Below are positions 3,168-17,597 of a stretch of DNA of 64,000 nucleotides, piece by piece (positions within the stretch are counted from its first letter, which is position 1; each line of letters begins with the position of its first letter). Made by a program: the position numbers and the translations under genes. Origin of the DNA: an uncultured Candidatus Binatia bacterium. Lineage in GTDB: Bacteria > Desulfobacterota > Binatia > UBA9968 > JAJDTQ01. The stretch is from positions 1 through 64,000 of the forward strand of contig OZ251459.1 in NCBI GenBank assembly GCA_965242525.1. Direction: 5' to 3'. A model generated the notes under the pieces. That model made no database searches, was not told the origin of the DNA, and was given only the letters and a program-made list of their open reading frames with translations.

Positions 3168-4043
3168 ATGGAGTTGCTGCCGCGGTTTCGTGAGGGGACC
3201 TTCGAGGTGGAGGGTTCCCGGGTCCACTACCTGGAGAGCGGGGACCCGGCCCGGGAGACCTTCGTCTTCGTCCACGGCAACCGGGACCACTGCCACAGTT
3301 GGGACTTCCTGCTGGAGTCCTTCCGCAAGGCCGGGTTCGAGCTGCCCCATGTGGTGGCCCTGGACCTGCGGGGCCACGGCGACAGCGGCTGGGTCGGTCA
3401 AGAACGCGGTTACCGGCACGAGGACTTCGTGCTGGACCTGGTGGGCCTGCTGCGCCACCTGGGGAAGGACTCGGTCACGCTGGTGGCCCACTCCCTCGGG
3501 GGCAGCATGGCGGTGGTGTTCGCCGGGGCCTTGCCGGAGAGGGTCAGGCGGCTGGTGCTCATCGAGGCGGTGGGTCCCTACGGCCGCGCGGAAGAGGAAG
3601 CCCCGGAGCTCTTCGGCCGCTGGACCCGGGACGACGGCTCGGACACCATCCTCACCTACTACGCCACCGTGGGACAGGCCGCGGACGCCATCTGCAGGCG
3701 TTTCCCGCTGGTCCCCAACCGGGCCGCCATGCACATGGCGCGCCACGGCACCCGGCCCACGCCCTACGGCCTGGTCTGGAAATACGACCCGCGCTCCCGC
3801 AACCCCTCGTACTCGTCGTTTTCCGAGACCCAGGTCCGGGCGTTCATCCACCGCATCGACTGTCCGACGCTGCTCGTCTTCGGGGCGGAGTCGGGCTACA
3901 GGGAATCGCCCCGCTACCGCCGGGTGGAACACTTCCGGAACCGGACGCTGGTGGAGATTCCCGGGACCGGGCACCACGTGCAGCAGGAAAGCCCCGACGA
4001 GCTGGCCGCGGCGATGATTCCGTTCCTGGGCGACCACGACTGA
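3168..4043 (+). CDS. alpha/beta fold hydrolase
   Basis: FVHG, DLRGHGDS, AHSLGG nucleophile elbow, GHHV; start could be 3150. Confidence 0.9.
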   Translation: MELLPRFREGTFEVEGSRVHYLESGDPARETFVFVHGNRDHCHSWDFLLESFRKAGFELPHVVALDLRGHGDSGWVGQERGYRHEDFVLDLVGLLRHLGKDSVTLVAHSLGGSMAVVFAGALPERVRRLVLIEAVGPYGRAEEEAPELFGRWTRDDGSDTILTYYATVGQAADAICRRFPLVPNRAAMHMARHGTRPTPYGLVWKYDPRSRNPSYSSFSETQVRAFIHRIDCPTLLVFGAESGYRESPRYRRVEHFRNRTLVEIPGTGHHVQQESPDELAAAMIPFLGDHD

Positions 4044-4084
4044 GTCCGGCGGACCGAACCGCCGAGTAGAGGAGGATACCAAAC

Positions 4085-5239
4085 ATGGATTTCGCATTGC
4101 CCGAGGAGTTGCAGTTGCTCCAGGACACGGTCCGGAAGTTCGTGGACCAGGAGCTCATCCCGGTGGAGATGGAGTGCCGGGACGGAGTGACCCTCAAGCC
4201 CGAGTACCGGGAACGGTTCGAGGCCAAGACCCGGGAGATGGGACTGTGGATGCTCGACGTGCCCGAGGAGTTCGGCGGCGCCGGCCTGAGCCTCATGGGA
4301 CAGGTGGTGGTCTGGGCCGAGGTGGCCCGCTCGGTGGCGGTGCCGTCCCGGGGCCGCAGCATATTCGGCCCGGAAGTGCGGCCCGTGCTCTACGCCATGA
4401 ACGACGGGCAGAAGGATCGCTACCTCTATCCCCTGCTCAAGGGCGAGAAGCGCGCCTGCTTCGCCCAGACCGAGCCCGACGCCGGTTCGGACCCGGGCTC
4501 CATGCGCACCCGGGCCGTGCGCGACGGCGACGAATACGTGATCAACGGGGTCAAGCGCTTCATCACCGAGGCGGACGAAGCCGACTTCGCCCAGGTGATG
4601 GTGGCCACCGACCCCGGCAAGGGCTCCCACGGGGGCATCTCGTGCATACTGGTGGACATGGACAACCCGGGGGTGAAGGTCACCGCCAGGTACAAGACCA
4701 TGATGGGCTACGAGCCCTGCGAGATCGTCTTCGACGACTGCCGGGTGCCCGCGGCGAACATGATCGGCGCGGAAGGCGAGGGTTTCAAGCTCGGACAGAA
4801 ATGGCTCGGCATCGGCCGGCTCAAGCACGGCGGGCGCGCCATCGGCGTGGCCCGGCGGGCCATCGAGATGGGCGCCCGGTACGCCAAGCAGAGGGTCACC
4901 TTCGGCAAGCCGCTGGCGGACAGGCAGGCCATCCAGTTCAAGCTGGCGGACTCCTACACCGAGCTCCACGCGGCGACCCTGATGGTCTATCACGCGGCCT
5001 GGAAATACGACCGGGGCGAGGACATGCGCAACGAGGGCTACATGGTCAAGGTCTTCGCCGACGAGATGTCCTTCCGGGTGGTGGACCGGGTGCTCCAGAT
5101 CCACGGGGGCGTGGGCCTCACCACGGACCTGCCCATCGAGTTGTGGTTCCGCGATCAGCGGAGCCGGCTCATCACCGAGGGCGCGTCGGAAGTCATGCGC
5201 ATGGTCATCGCGCGGCACGTGCTGCGGCAGTACGGCTGA
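4085..5239 (+). CDS. acyl-CoA dehydrogenase family protein
   Basis: FAQTEPDAGSD, INGVKRFIT, RVTFGKPLADRQAIQ, QIHGGVG, EGASEV. Confidence 0.95.
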   Translation: MDFALPEELQLLQDTVRKFVDQELIPVEMECRDGVTLKPEYRERFEAKTREMGLWMLDVPEEFGGAGLSLMGQVVVWAEVARSVAVPSRGRSIFGPEVRPVLYAMNDGQKDRYLYPLLKGEKRACFAQTEPDAGSDPGSMRTRAVRDGDEYVINGVKRFITEADEADFAQVMVATDPGKGSHGGISCILVDMDNPGVKVTARYKTMMGYEPCEIVFDDCRVPAANMIGAEGEGFKLGQKWLGIGRLKHGGRAIGVARRAIEMGARYAKQRVTFGKPLADRQAIQFKLADSYTELHAATLMVYHAAWKYDRGEDMRNEGYMVKVFADEMSFRVVDRVLQIHGGVGLTTDLPIELWFRDQRSRLITEGASEVMRMVIARHVLRQYG

Positions 5240-13611: not shown

Positions 13612-14559
13612 TCAGCCGCGGCTTTCCATGTGGGTCAGGAAACGCTCGGCGTCGATGGCGGCCATGCAGCCGCTGCCCGCCGCGGTGACCGCCTGGCGGT
13701 AGATGCGGTCCTGGACGTCGCCGCAGGCGAAGACCCCGTCCACCGTGGTCTTCGTGCCGTCGCGGGTCTCGATGTAGCCCAACTCGTCCATCTCCAGGAC
13801 CCCCTCGAAGAGCCGGGAATTGGGTTGGTGGCCGATGGCGATGAACACGCCGTCGCAGGCGAACTCCTCTGCCTCGCCGGTCTTGCGGTTCCGCAGCGTC
13901 ACGCCGGTGACTCCCCCGGACAGGGGGTCCCCGTGGATGTCTTCCACGGTGCTGTTCCAGAGGAAGCCGATCTTCGGGTTGGCCCGGGCCCGGTCCTGCA
14001 TGATCTTCGAGGCCCGGAGCTCGTCCCGGCGGTGCACCACCGTGACCTTGCTGGCGAACTTGGTGAGGAACGCGGCTTCCTCCATGGCGGTGTCGCCGCC
14101 GCCCACCACCACGAGCTCCTTCTCCTTGAAGAAGAATCCGTCGCAGGTGGCGCACGCGGAGACCCCGTGCCCCATGAGCCTGGCCTCGGAGTCGATCCCC
14201 AGCAGCTTGGCGGTGGCGCCGGTGGCGATGATGAGGGCGTCGCAGGTGTAGAGGTCCTTGCCCGCCCGGACCTCCAGCGGACGGTTCCCCAGGTCCACCC
14301 CGGTGACGTCGCCGAACACGATCCTCGTGCCGAAGCGTTCCGCCTGCTTGCGGAACTGCTCCATCATGTCCGGCCCGAGTATGCCGTCGGGAAAACCGGG
14401 GTAGTTCTCCACGTCGGTGGTGATGGTCAACTGCCCGCCGGGCTGGGATCCCTCCACCACCAGCGGCTCCAGGTTCGCCCGGGCCGTGTACAGGGCCGCA
14501 GTCAGGCCCGCCGCGCCCGAGCCCAGTATGATCACGCGGTAATGGTTCCGGTCTGCCAT
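13612..14559 (-). CDS. trxB: thioredoxin-disulfide reductase
   Basis: [40 protein letters not shown]. Confidence 0.97.
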
Positions 14560-14754
14560 GCCCTGGATCATACCACACGGGCGGGCCGTGCGACAGGCGC
14601 GCGCCTGCCTTGCGGAAGATGGTGTTTCAGGCTTTCGAGTGGGCAAGGCAAGAGGGAAAGGGGATCGGCAGGGGTCAGGCCGTCATTCCCTCGCTTCTGC
14701 GGCGCCTGCCTCGACAGGCATTAAGCCGGGGTCAGGCTCCGCGGACGCCCACGC

Positions 14755-14780
14755 CGTCATTCCGCGAAAGCGGGAATCCA
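14755..14780. repeat. single REP-like palindrome related to the 58-bp array core
   Basis: GTCATTCCGCGAAAGCGGGAATCCA, one base shorter than the core of the 37186-37478 array. Confidence 0.7.
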
Positions 14781-14957
14781 CCTTGCAGTTCTTCCGGCTT
14801 TTGCGTGACAGGATTTCACGGGTATAGCGTTCCGTCCACTCAAGAGAGGAGGGAATCGGAGTCTTCGCTACCCCGAACCGGGGCTGGCAAGGTGGGAGTC
14901 GGACCTCATCGCGGGATGGGGAGTGTCACAACCCACACGAATTCCTGAAGAGCCTGT

Positions 14958-15677
14958 CTACCATCCTGATTCCGTTCCAGTGTATGGGCTCTGCATGGCC
15001 CGCATCCCCGAACCCAGCTCCTGCTCCAGTCTGCGTTGTTCTTGCGCTGCGTCCGCTTCCGTCACGATCCCTACCCCTACGTACGCCCGTACCGCTTCGG
15101 CAACCGACTCGACCTGTACGACACGTCTCAGGTTGTCGTCCCGCCCCGATCGCCAGTAGATTTCCACCCCGGCGCCAAGTGCCAATTGCAGCTCCGGTTT
15201 GCCCAGTGGATCTTGCTCTTTCAGCGTTGTTAGCAGTGCGGTGGCTCCCCGCCACACCTCCATGAGCTGGCTGCGCTCCTCCCGGCTCGGCATCTTGCCT
15301 CTCGGCTCGCGCTGTATCTCAGCGTGTGCTCGATTCCCCGGCACAGGTCGATCCGTGACGCTCCAAAGCCTGTATCCTTCTGCATCCGTCAGCCTGCGGA
15401 TGTCTCCTGCCTTGGCCTTGATAGTGCCCCGCATTCCTCGCCGGCCTACGATTCCTCCCTGCGTATATCGGCTTCTATCTACTGATGCTCCGCCTTCCTC
15501 CTCGGTCCACTGAAGATCTCTGCGCGAAAACGCAGTTTGGGAGATCGCATCGCTACCGATCTCCCGCTCTCTAGGGGGTAGTCTGCGTTCCAGATCTTCG
15601 TCGTCCTTGACGACCCCAGGCGATTGCACTCCGTGCATTCGTTCTTCCTCTGGAAACTTCTCCCCGCGCCTGGCCAA
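14958..15677 (-). CDS. hypothetical protein with putative ADP-ribosyltransferase/RES-like N-terminal domain
   Basis: Third gene of a tight operon; DDEDLERRL, AF...GASVDR and DRPVPGNRAHAEI resemble ART-fold toxin motifs (inference); start may be ATG 15638. Confidence 0.6.
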   Translation of the reverse strand: MARRGEKFPEEERMHGVQSPGVVKDDEDLERRLPPREREIGSDAISQTAFSRRDLQWTEEEGGASVDRSRYTQGGIVGRRGMRGTIKAKAGDIRRLTDAEGYRLWSVTDRPVPGNRAHAEIQREPRGKMPSREERSQLMEVWRGATALLTTLKEQDPLGKPELQLALGAGVEIYWRSGRDDNLRRVVQVESVAEAVRAYVGVGIVTEADAAQEQRRLEQELGSGMRAMQSPYTGTESGW

Positions 15678-15680
15678 CTC

Positions 15681-16277
15681 TCAGATCTCCTCGGGCACCT
15701 CGCCTAGCCATGACATGACCCGGCCGAGTTCTTCTCTGCTGTGCTCCTGGAAGTTTCCTTCCTTGCTCTCCTCGCTCAGGGTGCGGCTGACGTAGTACCC
15801 GATGCTGCCATCCTCCTCCGTGCCGACCTCGACCCTGCCATACCCACTGCGCCAGATGATGCAGATCTCCCATGACTCGTCGGCATAAACATCATCAGGC
15901 CGCTTCCACTCGTCGCACAGCCCGAGCAACGCTGCGATCCGATCCCTGTTTACTTCGATCTGTCGCTTTGTCCCTCCCTTGACTTGGGCTGCCCGCAAAG
16001 TGTCGGCGTCGATCGCGTCTAGGATCTCTCGCGTCGTCTTCGTTTCTCGTCCGCTTCCACTCGTGTCGATCCTCCATCCAAGACCTCTCTCATCGGCCTG
16101 CCATGCGGTTCCGTTCACGTGTTGTGGTTGCTGCTCGGTAACGTCTCCTTCCTCTTCCTTCCTCGGTGCTTCAATGGGCTGCAGCGGATAGCTCGGGTCT
16201 TGTGTAGGCTCGATGACTCCGAATCGGACCACTGGTGCTTCGATCGGGACACGCACTGTGCTTTCGGCTGTGTTCAT
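15681..16277 (-). CDS. hypothetical acidic protein (candidate antitoxin/partner)
   Basis: ATGA overlap with upstream gene; disordered-looking N-terminus; C-terminal ICIIWRSG..VEVG..DGSIGYY domain. Confidence 0.7.
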   Translation of the reverse strand: MNTAESTVRVPIEAPVVRFGVIEPTQDPSYPLQPIEAPRKEEEGDVTEQQPQHVNGTAWQADERGLGWRIDTSGSGRETKTTREILDAIDADTLRAAQVKGGTKRQIEVNRDRIAALLGLCDEWKRPDDVYADESWEICIIWRSGYGRVEVGTEEDGSIGYYVSRTLSEESKEGNFQEHSREELGRVMSWLGEVPEEI

Positions 16278-17119
16278 GTCGGGTCCCCCAGTTGTTTCAT
16301 TCCGACCTGACGGGCGGTCTCCTCTGTGATCAGGTTCCCGAACAGCGCGTGGGTTCGCCTGTGCAGTCCGTCACATATGACTCGGCCGTCGCTGTCGTTC
16401 CCATCGACCGAGTGGATGTTTCCGAACGCTCTATCGAGTTTCAGGCGAGCGCTTGTCTCTCCAAATCCCCAGATCGCGGTCGTCACCACCTGGATGATTG
16501 GGCGTATCCGGTTTCCTTCCCTGCGCAGTTCCGCCCCGATCTGAAACCGTTCCAAGATACGTTCCCCTTCGGGGTTCTCAACCCATCCCTCCCCTATGTG
16601 CCACTCCTTCGATCTTGTCGCTTGAGTGGGGATCCATTCCGTTCGGATCGCGAGCTTTGGATCGTAGGCGTCGTCGGCGCCGTGCCAGACAAGCAGGTCT
16701 TGGTAGGTCAGCTCCACACTGCGGATCTGTGCCAGCGCGTGGGCATCTCCAAGGGTCTTGCCCAAGCTGGCGAACAGCTCGTAGGCTTTCCTGCTTACGC
16801 TCTTCCACCCACCGTACTGTGCGCATCCGATCGTGATCGTCGGCCCGACTATCTCCATCCACCAAGCGGCCTTGCCCGTGCGCATGAATTCGATGTACTG
16901 CGTGGGTGCCAGCGGCTTCGGCCTTTCGTCCACCAGTGGCGTCGGACCCATAGCGATTTCCATCACAGGTGTCTGGTTCACCGTCGGCAATACAGCCTTC
17001 CAATACTTCTCGTACCCTCCGTCGAGGATCGCCCGCTCGTGCTCCGTCATCTCGCCACTCCCCGTGAGCCGGAGGATCATGGTCTCAATGGCGTGGTCCG
17101 GGTGCAGTGGCTTGAACAT
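16274..17119 (-). CDS. TIGR04255-like protein
   Basis: N-terminal FKP...HAIE, YGGW and IRSVELTYQD match my recollection of the TIGR04255 pattern; CAGGAG RBS. Confidence 0.7.
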   Translation of the reverse strand: MFKPLHPDHAIETMILRLTGSGEMTEHERAILDGGYEKYWKAVLPTVNQTPVMEIAMGPTPLVDERPKPLAPTQYIEFMRTGKAAWWMEIVGPTITIGCAQYGGWKSVSRKAYELFASLGKTLGDAHALAQIRSVELTYQDLLVWHGADDAYDPKLAIRTEWIPTQATRSKEWHIGEGWVENPEGERILERFQIGAELRREGNRIRPIIQVVTTAIWGFGETSARLKLDRAFGNIHSVDGNDSDGRVICDGLHRRTHALFGNLITEETARQVGMKQLGDPT

Positions 17120-17228
17120 GCTGCTCCTGTTCTCCGAGTACTTGGCGTCTTGGCCCCGTTCGCGCGCTGCTCGGGGATTGGTGGCTCCCGCCCCATCTTC
17201 CGCCTTCTCGTCCGTCTGCCGTGAGGGT

Positions 17229-17258
17229 ATTATGCCGGCTCGGTATTTTTACTGTCAA
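17229..17258 (-). promoter_or_regulatory. sigma70-type promoter for the three-gene operon
   Basis: Minus strand TTGACA (17258-17253), 18-nt spacer, CATAAT (17234-17229). Confidence 0.7.
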
Positions 17259-17597
17259 GGTCCTGGCTATTTCATGTTCCCGGGAAGACCTTGCTATGGT
17301 GGAGCCACCATTTCAGGCGAGCGCCCCTACTTCTCTTCTCATGCCCACCCCGCTCGCACTCGCGACCCTGAGTCTCTTCATAGACGACGTCGTCCTCCGC
17401 TGCAAGCTCGACCCGCCGCTTCAGCACCGGATCGGACTCTCCACCAAGTTTGAGGAAACGCTCCGCACCTGTGTCGGGCAGCAGCACCGGGCAACTGGCG
17501 ATGTGGAGCACCGGAGAATTGCCCGTCAACCGTTCCCGCCGTTGGCTTTCACGGCTGTGGGCGATAGACTGGCCCGAACCGCAGGAAAGGAAGAAAC

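Follow-up and report, generated by a model that had tools for sequence, protein, structure and literature searches.

Omega-epsilon-zeta, HipBST and paaR-paaA-parE are three-component operons of a regulator, an antitoxin and a toxin, and their first genes encode small DNA-binding repressors. In the toxin–antitoxin–chaperone (TAC) systems, such as HigB-HigA-SecB of Mycobacterium tuberculosis and CmdTAC, the pair is accompanied by a chaperone, as set out in PMC5105189, PMC6377645, PMC11618068 and bioRxiv 10.1101/2024.02.24.581848. Here we describe a three-gene operon on the minus strand of a 64,000-nucleotide (nt) stretch of DNA from an uncultured Candidatus Binatia bacterium (contig OZ251459.1, positions 1 to 64,000; hereafter the window). 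It consists of gene 1 (16274-17119, 281 amino acids (aa)), encoding a divergent TIGR04255-family protein as putative accessory component, gene 2 (15681-16277, 198 aa), encoding a putative antitoxin or adaptor with a conserved C-terminal domain, and gene 3 (14958-15677, 239 aa, TTG start), encoding a putative toxin. A preliminary description, made from the sequence alone, had proposed a candidate tripartite toxin or anti-phage system at this site. On balance, we favour the view that the cassette is a tripartite toxin–antitoxin-like or defence-type module with a new accessory component.

The resemblance of gene 1 to TIGR04255, suggested in the preliminary description, was borne out by a hidden Markov model search. 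Gene 1 scored 28.6 bits against the NCBIfam profile (E 1.1e-6), and 27.1 bits when the genome was searched, just below the curated cut-off of 30 bits, and is therefore regarded as a sub-threshold, divergent TIGR04255 relative and not as a curated member. Residues 31-271 align in one stretch to positions 27-250 of the 252 in the profile. The profile was also matched at E <= 0.01 by 20 of 21 relatives of gene 1 (best 2.7e-9), and two relatives reached 30.1-30.4 bits "with neighbours in the frame". When 59 TIGR04255 proteins were placed in a tree, the family of gene 1 grouped with the proteins of loci L087 and L088 (support 99), a placement that carries a long-branch warning; both loci contain the same kind of partner genes as gene 1. 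The sole other NCBIfam match of gene 1 was a chance PDxFFG hit, no match was found in Pfam (E <= 1) or PADLOC, and a Foldseek search of its structural model against the PDB returned nothing at E <= 0.001. The model shows a predicted alpha/beta fold that appears to differ from SecB, which was not among the fold matches listed. Among the 59 TIGR04255 proteins, conserved positions are few and mostly aromatic and do not form a catalytic set; judged from this alignment, gene 1 probably encodes a non-enzymatic binding protein.

Of 401 genomes sampled in each of two phyla, 43 from the window's phylum and 32 from the other encoded canonical TIGR04255 proteins. We read 30 and 31 canonical loci from the two phyla, one of which was cut by a contig end, leaving 29 and 31. 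In 25 of the 29 and 25 of the 31 loci, the TIGR04255 gene was followed by two further co-directional open reading frames (ORFs) of about 100-230 aa, the first of which usually begins 1-8 nt inside the TIGR04255 stop codon. The operon in the window has the same layout, with its TIGR04255-like gene first and two small, coupled, co-directional genes behind it. The TIGR04255-led three-gene operon is a class defined in this analysis, not a published family. When plasmid and phage collections were queried with TIGR04255, matches appeared on three plasmids and in the record of one P2-like Ralstonia phage. On a Vibrio parahaemolyticus plasmid (CP063527.1, 158-2105) the annotated genes run in one direction from a TIGR04255 protein through a hypothetical protein to a zeta toxin family protein, and on a Crinalium plasmid TIGR04255 is accompanied by two hypothetical proteins.

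Pfam assigned the third genes of the first sample (n = 25) to DUF7689 (5), PIN (4), PemK/MazF (2), HEPN (1) and HicA (1; E 3e-4, below the cut-off), and one of the 23 third genes of the second sample to PemK; the pairs of L071 and L085 were left out of the second sample as probably spurious short ORFs. Ten second genes searched against Pfam yielded no family. In triads with recognisable families the toxin was always the third gene. The survey and the plasmid annotations thus show that TIGR04255 typically opens a three-gene operon, which ends, where recognisable, in a toxin of toxin–antitoxin type (PIN, MazF, HEPN, HicA or zeta), and the toxin–antitoxin-plus-accessory layout put forward for the window agrees with this. 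The remaining third genes were sorted by inspection of their motifs and alignments; this gave three groups without a name, which made up 14 ("R-F-S-H"), 13 ("QGD...[ST][QN]xCD") and 3 ("HxAWH...GLTCATF") of the 48.

Several features of these third genes were recorded in passing. DUF7689 occupied the toxin position in L011, L018, L020, L021 and L023 (E down to 4.5e-43), with a conserved "YNC.AWA" motif. The QGD type, grouped by eye (L015, L016, L017, L035, L037, L066, L069, L070, L075, L078, L079, L080 and L081), comprises proteins of 180-280 aa in which "QGD" is followed about 30-40 residues on by "[ST][QN]xCD", and has no Pfam match. Likewise without a Pfam match, the third genes of L061, L062 and L065 (about 230 aa) carry "H.GI.Y...H.AWH" and "GLTCATF" motifs and, judged by these, possibly encode a Cys-His enzyme.

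Two loci illustrated how the partners of TIGR04255 might be exchanged. The TIGR04255 proteins of L016 and L019 share 85% identity. Their second genes resemble each other for about 85 residues from the start and differ beyond that point, while the third genes are unrelated, being of a 223-aa unnamed (QGD) type in L016 and MazF in L019. The exchange point therefore lies inside the second gene, which indicates that its toxin-specific C-terminal end is exchangeable and that the N-terminal part stays with TIGR04255. From these alignments the pair looks like a recent toxin swap. The genome of the window itself contains a second, canonical triad (G000:C1:3197057-3198977; L010:6057-7977) with a TIGR04255 protein of 269 aa (71 bits) and partners of 227 and 152 aa with overlapping starts, at a GC content of 0.55-0.63 compared to about 0.70 in the flanks. 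With 611 homologues, all unnamed, the 152-aa protein is, like gene 3, a member of the R-F-S-H family.

The assignment of the N-terminal domain of gene 3 to this R-F-S-H family of unnamed third genes is based on sequence comparison at two levels. BLASTP matched gene 3 to the third gene of the canonical triad in L087 (E 3e-8, 32% over 117 residues), and hhalign aligned the gene 3 profile over residues 15-131 (15285-15635; motifs LERRLP, GGASVxR and AHAEIQREP) to an alignment of 19 R-F-S-H sequences with a probability of 95.7% and E 8.5e-9. Among the family profile comparisons, only the broader alignments of third genes (A8) and second genes (A9) gave support; comparisons of small alignments were not significant (A1 of gene 3 vs A3, probability 1.9%; A4 vs A1, 6.3%), and neither was BLASTP of gene 3 against the 152-aa protein of its own genome. 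Every sequence of the R-F-S-H alignment has the same Ser, and nearly all share an Arg, a Phe and a His, corresponding to R31/R32, F50, S65 and H118 of gene 3. Pfam searches with the 19 members (E <= 5) found no shared family, and gene 3 itself had only a chance CPP1-like hit (E 0.13). Profile searches against PDB sequences gave no match for gene 3 (A1) or the R-F-S-H third genes (A8), and two chance hits for the second genes (A9). In the ESM Atlas, gene 3 and its 152-aa relative fell otherwise into unnamed clusters only; the nearest named cluster, DUF6098 (0.92 and 0.91, respectively), was flagged as often due to chance and not used.

The preliminary description had seen in gene 3 motifs reminiscent of ADP-ribosyltransferase (ART) or RES-fold toxins. 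The RES idea was not supported by Pfam, where neither gene 3 nor any of the 19 relatives (at E <= 5) matched RES. As to an ART, for which a split beta-sheet core binding NAD and an R-S-E or H-Y-E signature would be expected, R31/R32, S65 and E120 show little or no variation within the gene 3 family, and in the AlphaFold2 model (predicted local distance difference test score, pLDDT, 79) the R, S and E are placed on successive predicted strands. Across the wider family the common residues are reduced to R, F, S and H: H-x may be followed by E, N, D, L, T or G, and the Glu two residues past the His is kept in some subgroups only; this non-conserved Glu speaks against a classical R-S-E enzyme. A Foldseek search of the model against the PDB gave no match at E <= 0.001. 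Fold comparison returned figures of 4.5 for Tse2 (root-mean-square deviation 3.7, 115 aligned), 3.7 for AvrPphF ORF2, 3.5 and 3.0 for DarT, 3.5 for Tpt1, 3.4 for TreX, 3.0 for pertussis toxin and 2.8 for Scabin, and a second look gave 3.9 for Tpt1, 3.7 for AvrPphF and 2.7 for SPN NADase. DarT, Tpt1/KptA, pertussis toxin S1 and Scabin belong to the ART superfamily, and Tse2, AvrPphF ORF2 and TreX have ART-like folds. These model-based figures are a consistent hint of an ART, not a demonstration; among the fold matches listed SecB, RES and DarT were weak or missing, which is not evidence of absence. We would lean neither for nor against an ART-like fold of the N-terminal domain, and ADP-ribosyltransferase activity of gene 3 is a weak lead.

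Gene 3 carries in addition a C-terminal alpha/beta domain of about 90 residues (residues 145-229, 14991-15245), which is missing from the relatives of about 130-170 aa. Its residues 1-13 (MA.RGEKFPEE) were kept in all 20 aligned homologues and the internal Met14 was variable, so that the TTG start is supported.

Gene 2 had been described as acidic with a disordered-looking N-terminus, and indeed its N-terminal part is variable, acidic and probably disordered. No match was obtained in Pfam, NCBIfam (E <= 1) or PADLOC, and BLASTP against the 227-aa protein of the second triad in the same genome was not significant. Among 1.84 billion cluster representatives gene 2 had just 34 relatives, most of which match residues 70-198. 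Residues 110-183 (15729-15950) appear to be shared with the second genes of other TIGR04255 triads, as hhalign aligned them to the second genes of R-F-S-H triads (A7 vs A9) with a probability of 63% and E 6.8e-5. A shared N-terminal peptide of second genes (M-T/S/N-x-A/T...) was dropped as evidence, since the ATGA overlap forces a second codon starting with A.

Genes 2 and 3 were predicted to bind one another. For gene 3 together with residues 70-198 of gene 2, the predicted complex reached an ipSAE (interaction prediction score from aligned errors) of 0.87, compared to 0.36 for the best of 3 controls; the score lies above the mark for such predictions, which 58 of 80 solved complexes attain, as do 2 of 110 mismatched pairs, and which is only a rough one here, with our own alignments used. 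At least 75% of the contacts agreed between prediction runs and the pLDDT of the partner was at least 87. The predicted interface involves residues 128-173 of gene 2 and, in gene 3, residues 34, 44-53 and 129-136, which flank the conserved motifs, as well as parts of the C-terminal domain.

Among species-representative genomes, six loci with a relative of gene 3 were found, in metagenome-assembled genomes titled Alphaproteobacteria, Gammaproteobacteria (two), Azotimanducaceae, Longimicrobiales and Paracoccaceae. In all six, genes 1, 2 and 3 occur together in identical order, with 51-84% amino-acid identity, which confirms the earlier view of the three genes as one unit; in L007 gene 1 is cut by the record start, and in L005 it is split between two frames. 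DNA similarity among the related cassettes stops at the gene 3 stop, and in four of the six loci the GC content of the cassette is below that of the flanks. The triad is a mobile unit. In a collection of 5.8 billion proteins, gene 3 had 77 homologues (45-98% identity) and gene 1 had 70, none of which carries a name or a Pfam domain. The split gene 1 of L005 (4858-5570) is also shortened, with genes 2 and 3 open, and may be an instance of accessory-gene decay.

A complete TIGR04255 triad was also found in the record of Ralstonia phage YO139_2 (33029-36642; ORFs 194-1117, 1114-1611 and 1621-2061 of the extracted locus, L093). Its third gene matches the R-F-S-H family (probability 91%) and its second gene the partner family (96%). 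The phage record is unannotated and marked UNVERIFIED_ORG, and the triad lies near one of its ends.

In the window, the cassette is inserted between trxB and moaC, as had been noted before: one flanking gene encodes thioredoxin reductase (phmmer against the PDB, E 2.6e-114) and the other MoaC (E 1.3e-53). In other species of the genus, trxB divergently adjoins moaC without an insert in 10 of 11 loci; in the eleventh, that of the closest relative, the junction is rearranged. Homology to the moaC side of this relative stops at about 17523, and homology to the related cassette L003 runs from 17514 to exactly the gene 3 stop at 14958. The foreign segment therefore spans about 14958-17514 (about 2.56 kb), with its outer edge at about 17515-17523. 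Gene 3 had no match in 24 same-genus and 16 same-order genomes. This absence, the uninterrupted trxB-moaC junction in relatives, the promoter and the low GC content together show that the segment is a real insertion and not a set of chance ORFs. As part of the tripartite-module interpretation, which we hold to be somewhat more probable than its competitors taken together, the segment would have been acquired horizontally.

The insertion site showed some further peculiarities. In the closest relative (L053, G023:C1:2137000-2147000), trxB is not found within 7 kb of moaC, and the junction is a possible hotspot. The spacer between gene 3 and trxB (14647-14957, 311 bases) consists of short repeats dispersed in the host genome (103 matches); the repeat units are about 45-140 nt long, occur on both strands and have copies near moaC in the closest relative as well. 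The longest trxB ORF (13612-14646) begins at TTG, and matches to solved thioredoxin reductases begin only at residue about 29-38; the true start is therefore probably an internal ATG near 14550-14565, which would lengthen the spacer.

The operon is as compact as first described. Genes 1 and 2 overlap by ATGA (gene 1 ends in ACA TGA, gene 2 starts with ATG AAC), and genes 2 and 3 are separated by a 3-nt gap (GAG) in the junction TGA-GAG-TTG. The operon's own sigma-70-type promoter (TTGACA-18-CATAAT, 17229-17258) agrees with the consensus at 11 of 12 positions, and the 5' leader (17120-17228) contains the ribosome-binding site AGGAG 5 nt ahead of the gene 1 ATG, kept in L002 and L003; both elements had been recognised earlier. 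The promoter region contained 2 promoter-like sites compared to a mean of 0.6 in shuffled sequences, and L002 and L003, two related cassettes, match the surroundings of the promoter (17120-17284) at 74-82% identity. Further upstream, non-coding DNA at 17334-17514 travels with the cassette (78% identity to L003, minus strand) and is unique within its own genome. In L003, about 430 extra bases (3919-4352) lie within this otherwise common stretch. The reported drop in GC content was likewise evident, with 0.58-0.63 across 14800-17400 and 0.65-0.77 in the flanks.

The data show the anatomy of the operon, its insertion, the conserved triad, the family relations and the general order of TIGR04255, small gene and toxin; toxicity, the direction of neutralisation, what gene 1 does and a part in defence are inferred. 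Gene 3 would be the toxin, made up of the domain with the conserved Arg, Phe, Ser and His, which is possibly ADP-ribosyltransferase-like, and of the extra C-terminal domain. Gene 2 would be the antitoxin and neutralise gene 3 through direct binding by its conserved C-terminal domain. Gene 1, translationally coupled to gene 2, would be an accessory that controls the antitoxin, either as its stabiliser or chaperone, or by sensing a trigger, for example a phage protein. Once the antitoxin is lost or displaced, the toxin would arrest growth, leading to abortive infection or post-segregational addiction.

Other arrangements of the same three proteins have to be considered. The toxin–antitoxin pair might be the same and gene 1 a transcriptional regulator of the operon, like omega or PaaR, that binds promoter or leader DNA in place of an antitoxin in which no DNA-binding domain was detected. 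The modelled fold of gene 1 does resemble TBP, but no better than it resembles arginine-kinase/McsB, SerRS N-domain and AdoMetDC folds, and known toxin–antitoxin repressors are far smaller than 250-280 aa. Moreover, the second genes of L069, L079, L083 and L074 carry, by reading of their sequences, a helix-turn-helix-like segment of their own, and the L016/L019 swap, in which the second protein's N-terminal part goes with TIGR04255, suggests coupling between proteins rather than between protein and DNA. We therefore regard a regulator role of gene 1 as unlikely. The roles of the pair could also be reversed, gene 2 being toxic and neutralised by gene 3 or gene 1; binding as predicted for the complex is silent on which partner is toxic, and gene order varies among known toxin–antitoxin families. 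Against this stand the constant third position of recognisable toxins in TIGR04255 triads, the probably disordered N-terminus of gene 2, and the invariant polar residues of gene 3 (R31/R32, S65 and H118), as expected of an enzyme, which together make a reversal very improbable.

A further possibility is that the cassette is not a toxin–antitoxin system at all and encodes a non-toxic complex travelling on mobile DNA, for instance a stress-related or nucleic-acid-processing enzyme with two subunits. All three proteins are without a Pfam or PADLOC match, the extra domain of gene 3 is missing from its small relatives, and the cassette lies among housekeeping genes, all of which would fit such a complex. 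Elsewhere, though, TIGR04255 precedes bona fide toxins (PIN, PemK/MazF, HEPN and zeta), a related triad is carried by a phage, and the sporadic spread across phyla, low GC content and tight coupling are typical of toxin–antitoxin or defence cassettes. A non-toxic complex thus seems improbable to us.

The tripartite toxin–antitoxin-like module which we favour has to be held against several results that weigh on the other side. Using PADLOC v2.0.0, none of the three window proteins matched at E <= 1, and four canonical TIGR04255 proteins with their trios had no match save a marginal one of the L025 second gene to PDC-M32A (E 0.052, 10.6 bits). In the window, the cassette sits between housekeeping genes and not in a recognisable defence island, and gene 3 had no tblastn match in either the plasmid or the phage collection. 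Pfam detected no DNA-binding domain in gene 2, unlike in most type II antitoxins. The link of gene 2 to the second genes of R-F-S-H triads is, by profile comparison, moderate, and the comparison with a smaller alignment (A7 vs A5, probability 0.9%) was not significant. On the TIGR04255 tree, the toxin class was clustered, though not monophyletic (12 changes, where 7 is the minimum and shuffles average 28.7), so that partner swapping seems to be occasional and not free. Finally, the frameshift in L005 indicates that decay of the accessory gene need not affect the open frames of genes 2 and 3.

Beyond this locus, TIGR04255 proteins might define a new, widespread class of three-component toxin–antitoxin or anti-phage systems, in which an alpha/beta hub of 250-290 aa senses or chaperones the antitoxin and is combined with interchangeable antitoxin–toxin cassettes (PIN, MazF, HEPN, HicA, zeta, DUF7689 and at least three unnamed families), the R-F-S-H proteins being a new enzymatic toxin, possibly a minimal ART-like enzyme using nicotinamide adenine dinucleotide. 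We put this generalisation forward tentatively and consider it rather doubtful in its full extent. If it were true, TIGR04255, encoded by roughly a tenth of the genomes sampled from the two phyla, would be an unrecognised third component of many toxin–antitoxin modules and a second "accessory hub" next to the SecB-type chaperones. Unnamed toxin and antitoxin families would also be exposed, including R-F-S-H of gene 3, DUF7689 and "QGD...xCD". With all of its components small, such a compact three-gene system could serve for probing how toxin–antitoxin modules sense phage or stress.

The preliminary description knew of no described function for the triad, and likewise the full-text literature searched contained no mention of TIGR04255 or DUF7689, nor a function for the former. 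The NetFlax paper (PMC10440598) holds no passage on tripartite or third-gene systems, and the titles and abstracts surveyed on TAC and HipBST-type systems name no TIGR04255-type system. The class of modules headed by TIGR04255 is best read as undescribed and widespread. With the curated NCBIfam TIGR04255 proteins, gene 1 shares an alignment over nearly the full profile and the first place in a three-gene operon; it differs by its score below the cut-off and its membership in a long-branched, divergent subgroup. The only likeness to the PADLOC candidate PDC-M32 is the marginal match of the L025 second gene; the window proteins match no PADLOC model, and PDC-M32 is named only as a hypothetical candidate in passages of PMC12429752.

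Omega-epsilon-zeta, HipBST and paaR-paaA-parE resemble the TIGR04255 triads in the order of accessory, antitoxin and toxin, and one triad indeed ends in zeta. They differ in their first gene, as TIGR04255 proteins measure 240-290 aa and no DNA-binding family was detected in them. The TAC systems resemble the triads in consisting of three genes with a dedicated accessory protein that accompanies varied toxin–antitoxin pairs, and in their occurrence on mobile DNA and phage. Their antitoxins are modular as well, one segment belonging with the accessory protein and another with the toxin (PMC5105189 and PMC6377645), as in L016 and L019. Nevertheless, the ChAD element of TAC antitoxins is reported to be C-terminal (PMC6377645), whereas the accessory-linked segment in L016 and L019 is N-terminal. 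The accessory gene stands last in TAC operons and first in those headed by TIGR04255, and the accessory protein, SecB-like in TAC, is here TIGR04255-like, has no Pfam match and is modelled with what appears to be a different alpha/beta fold.

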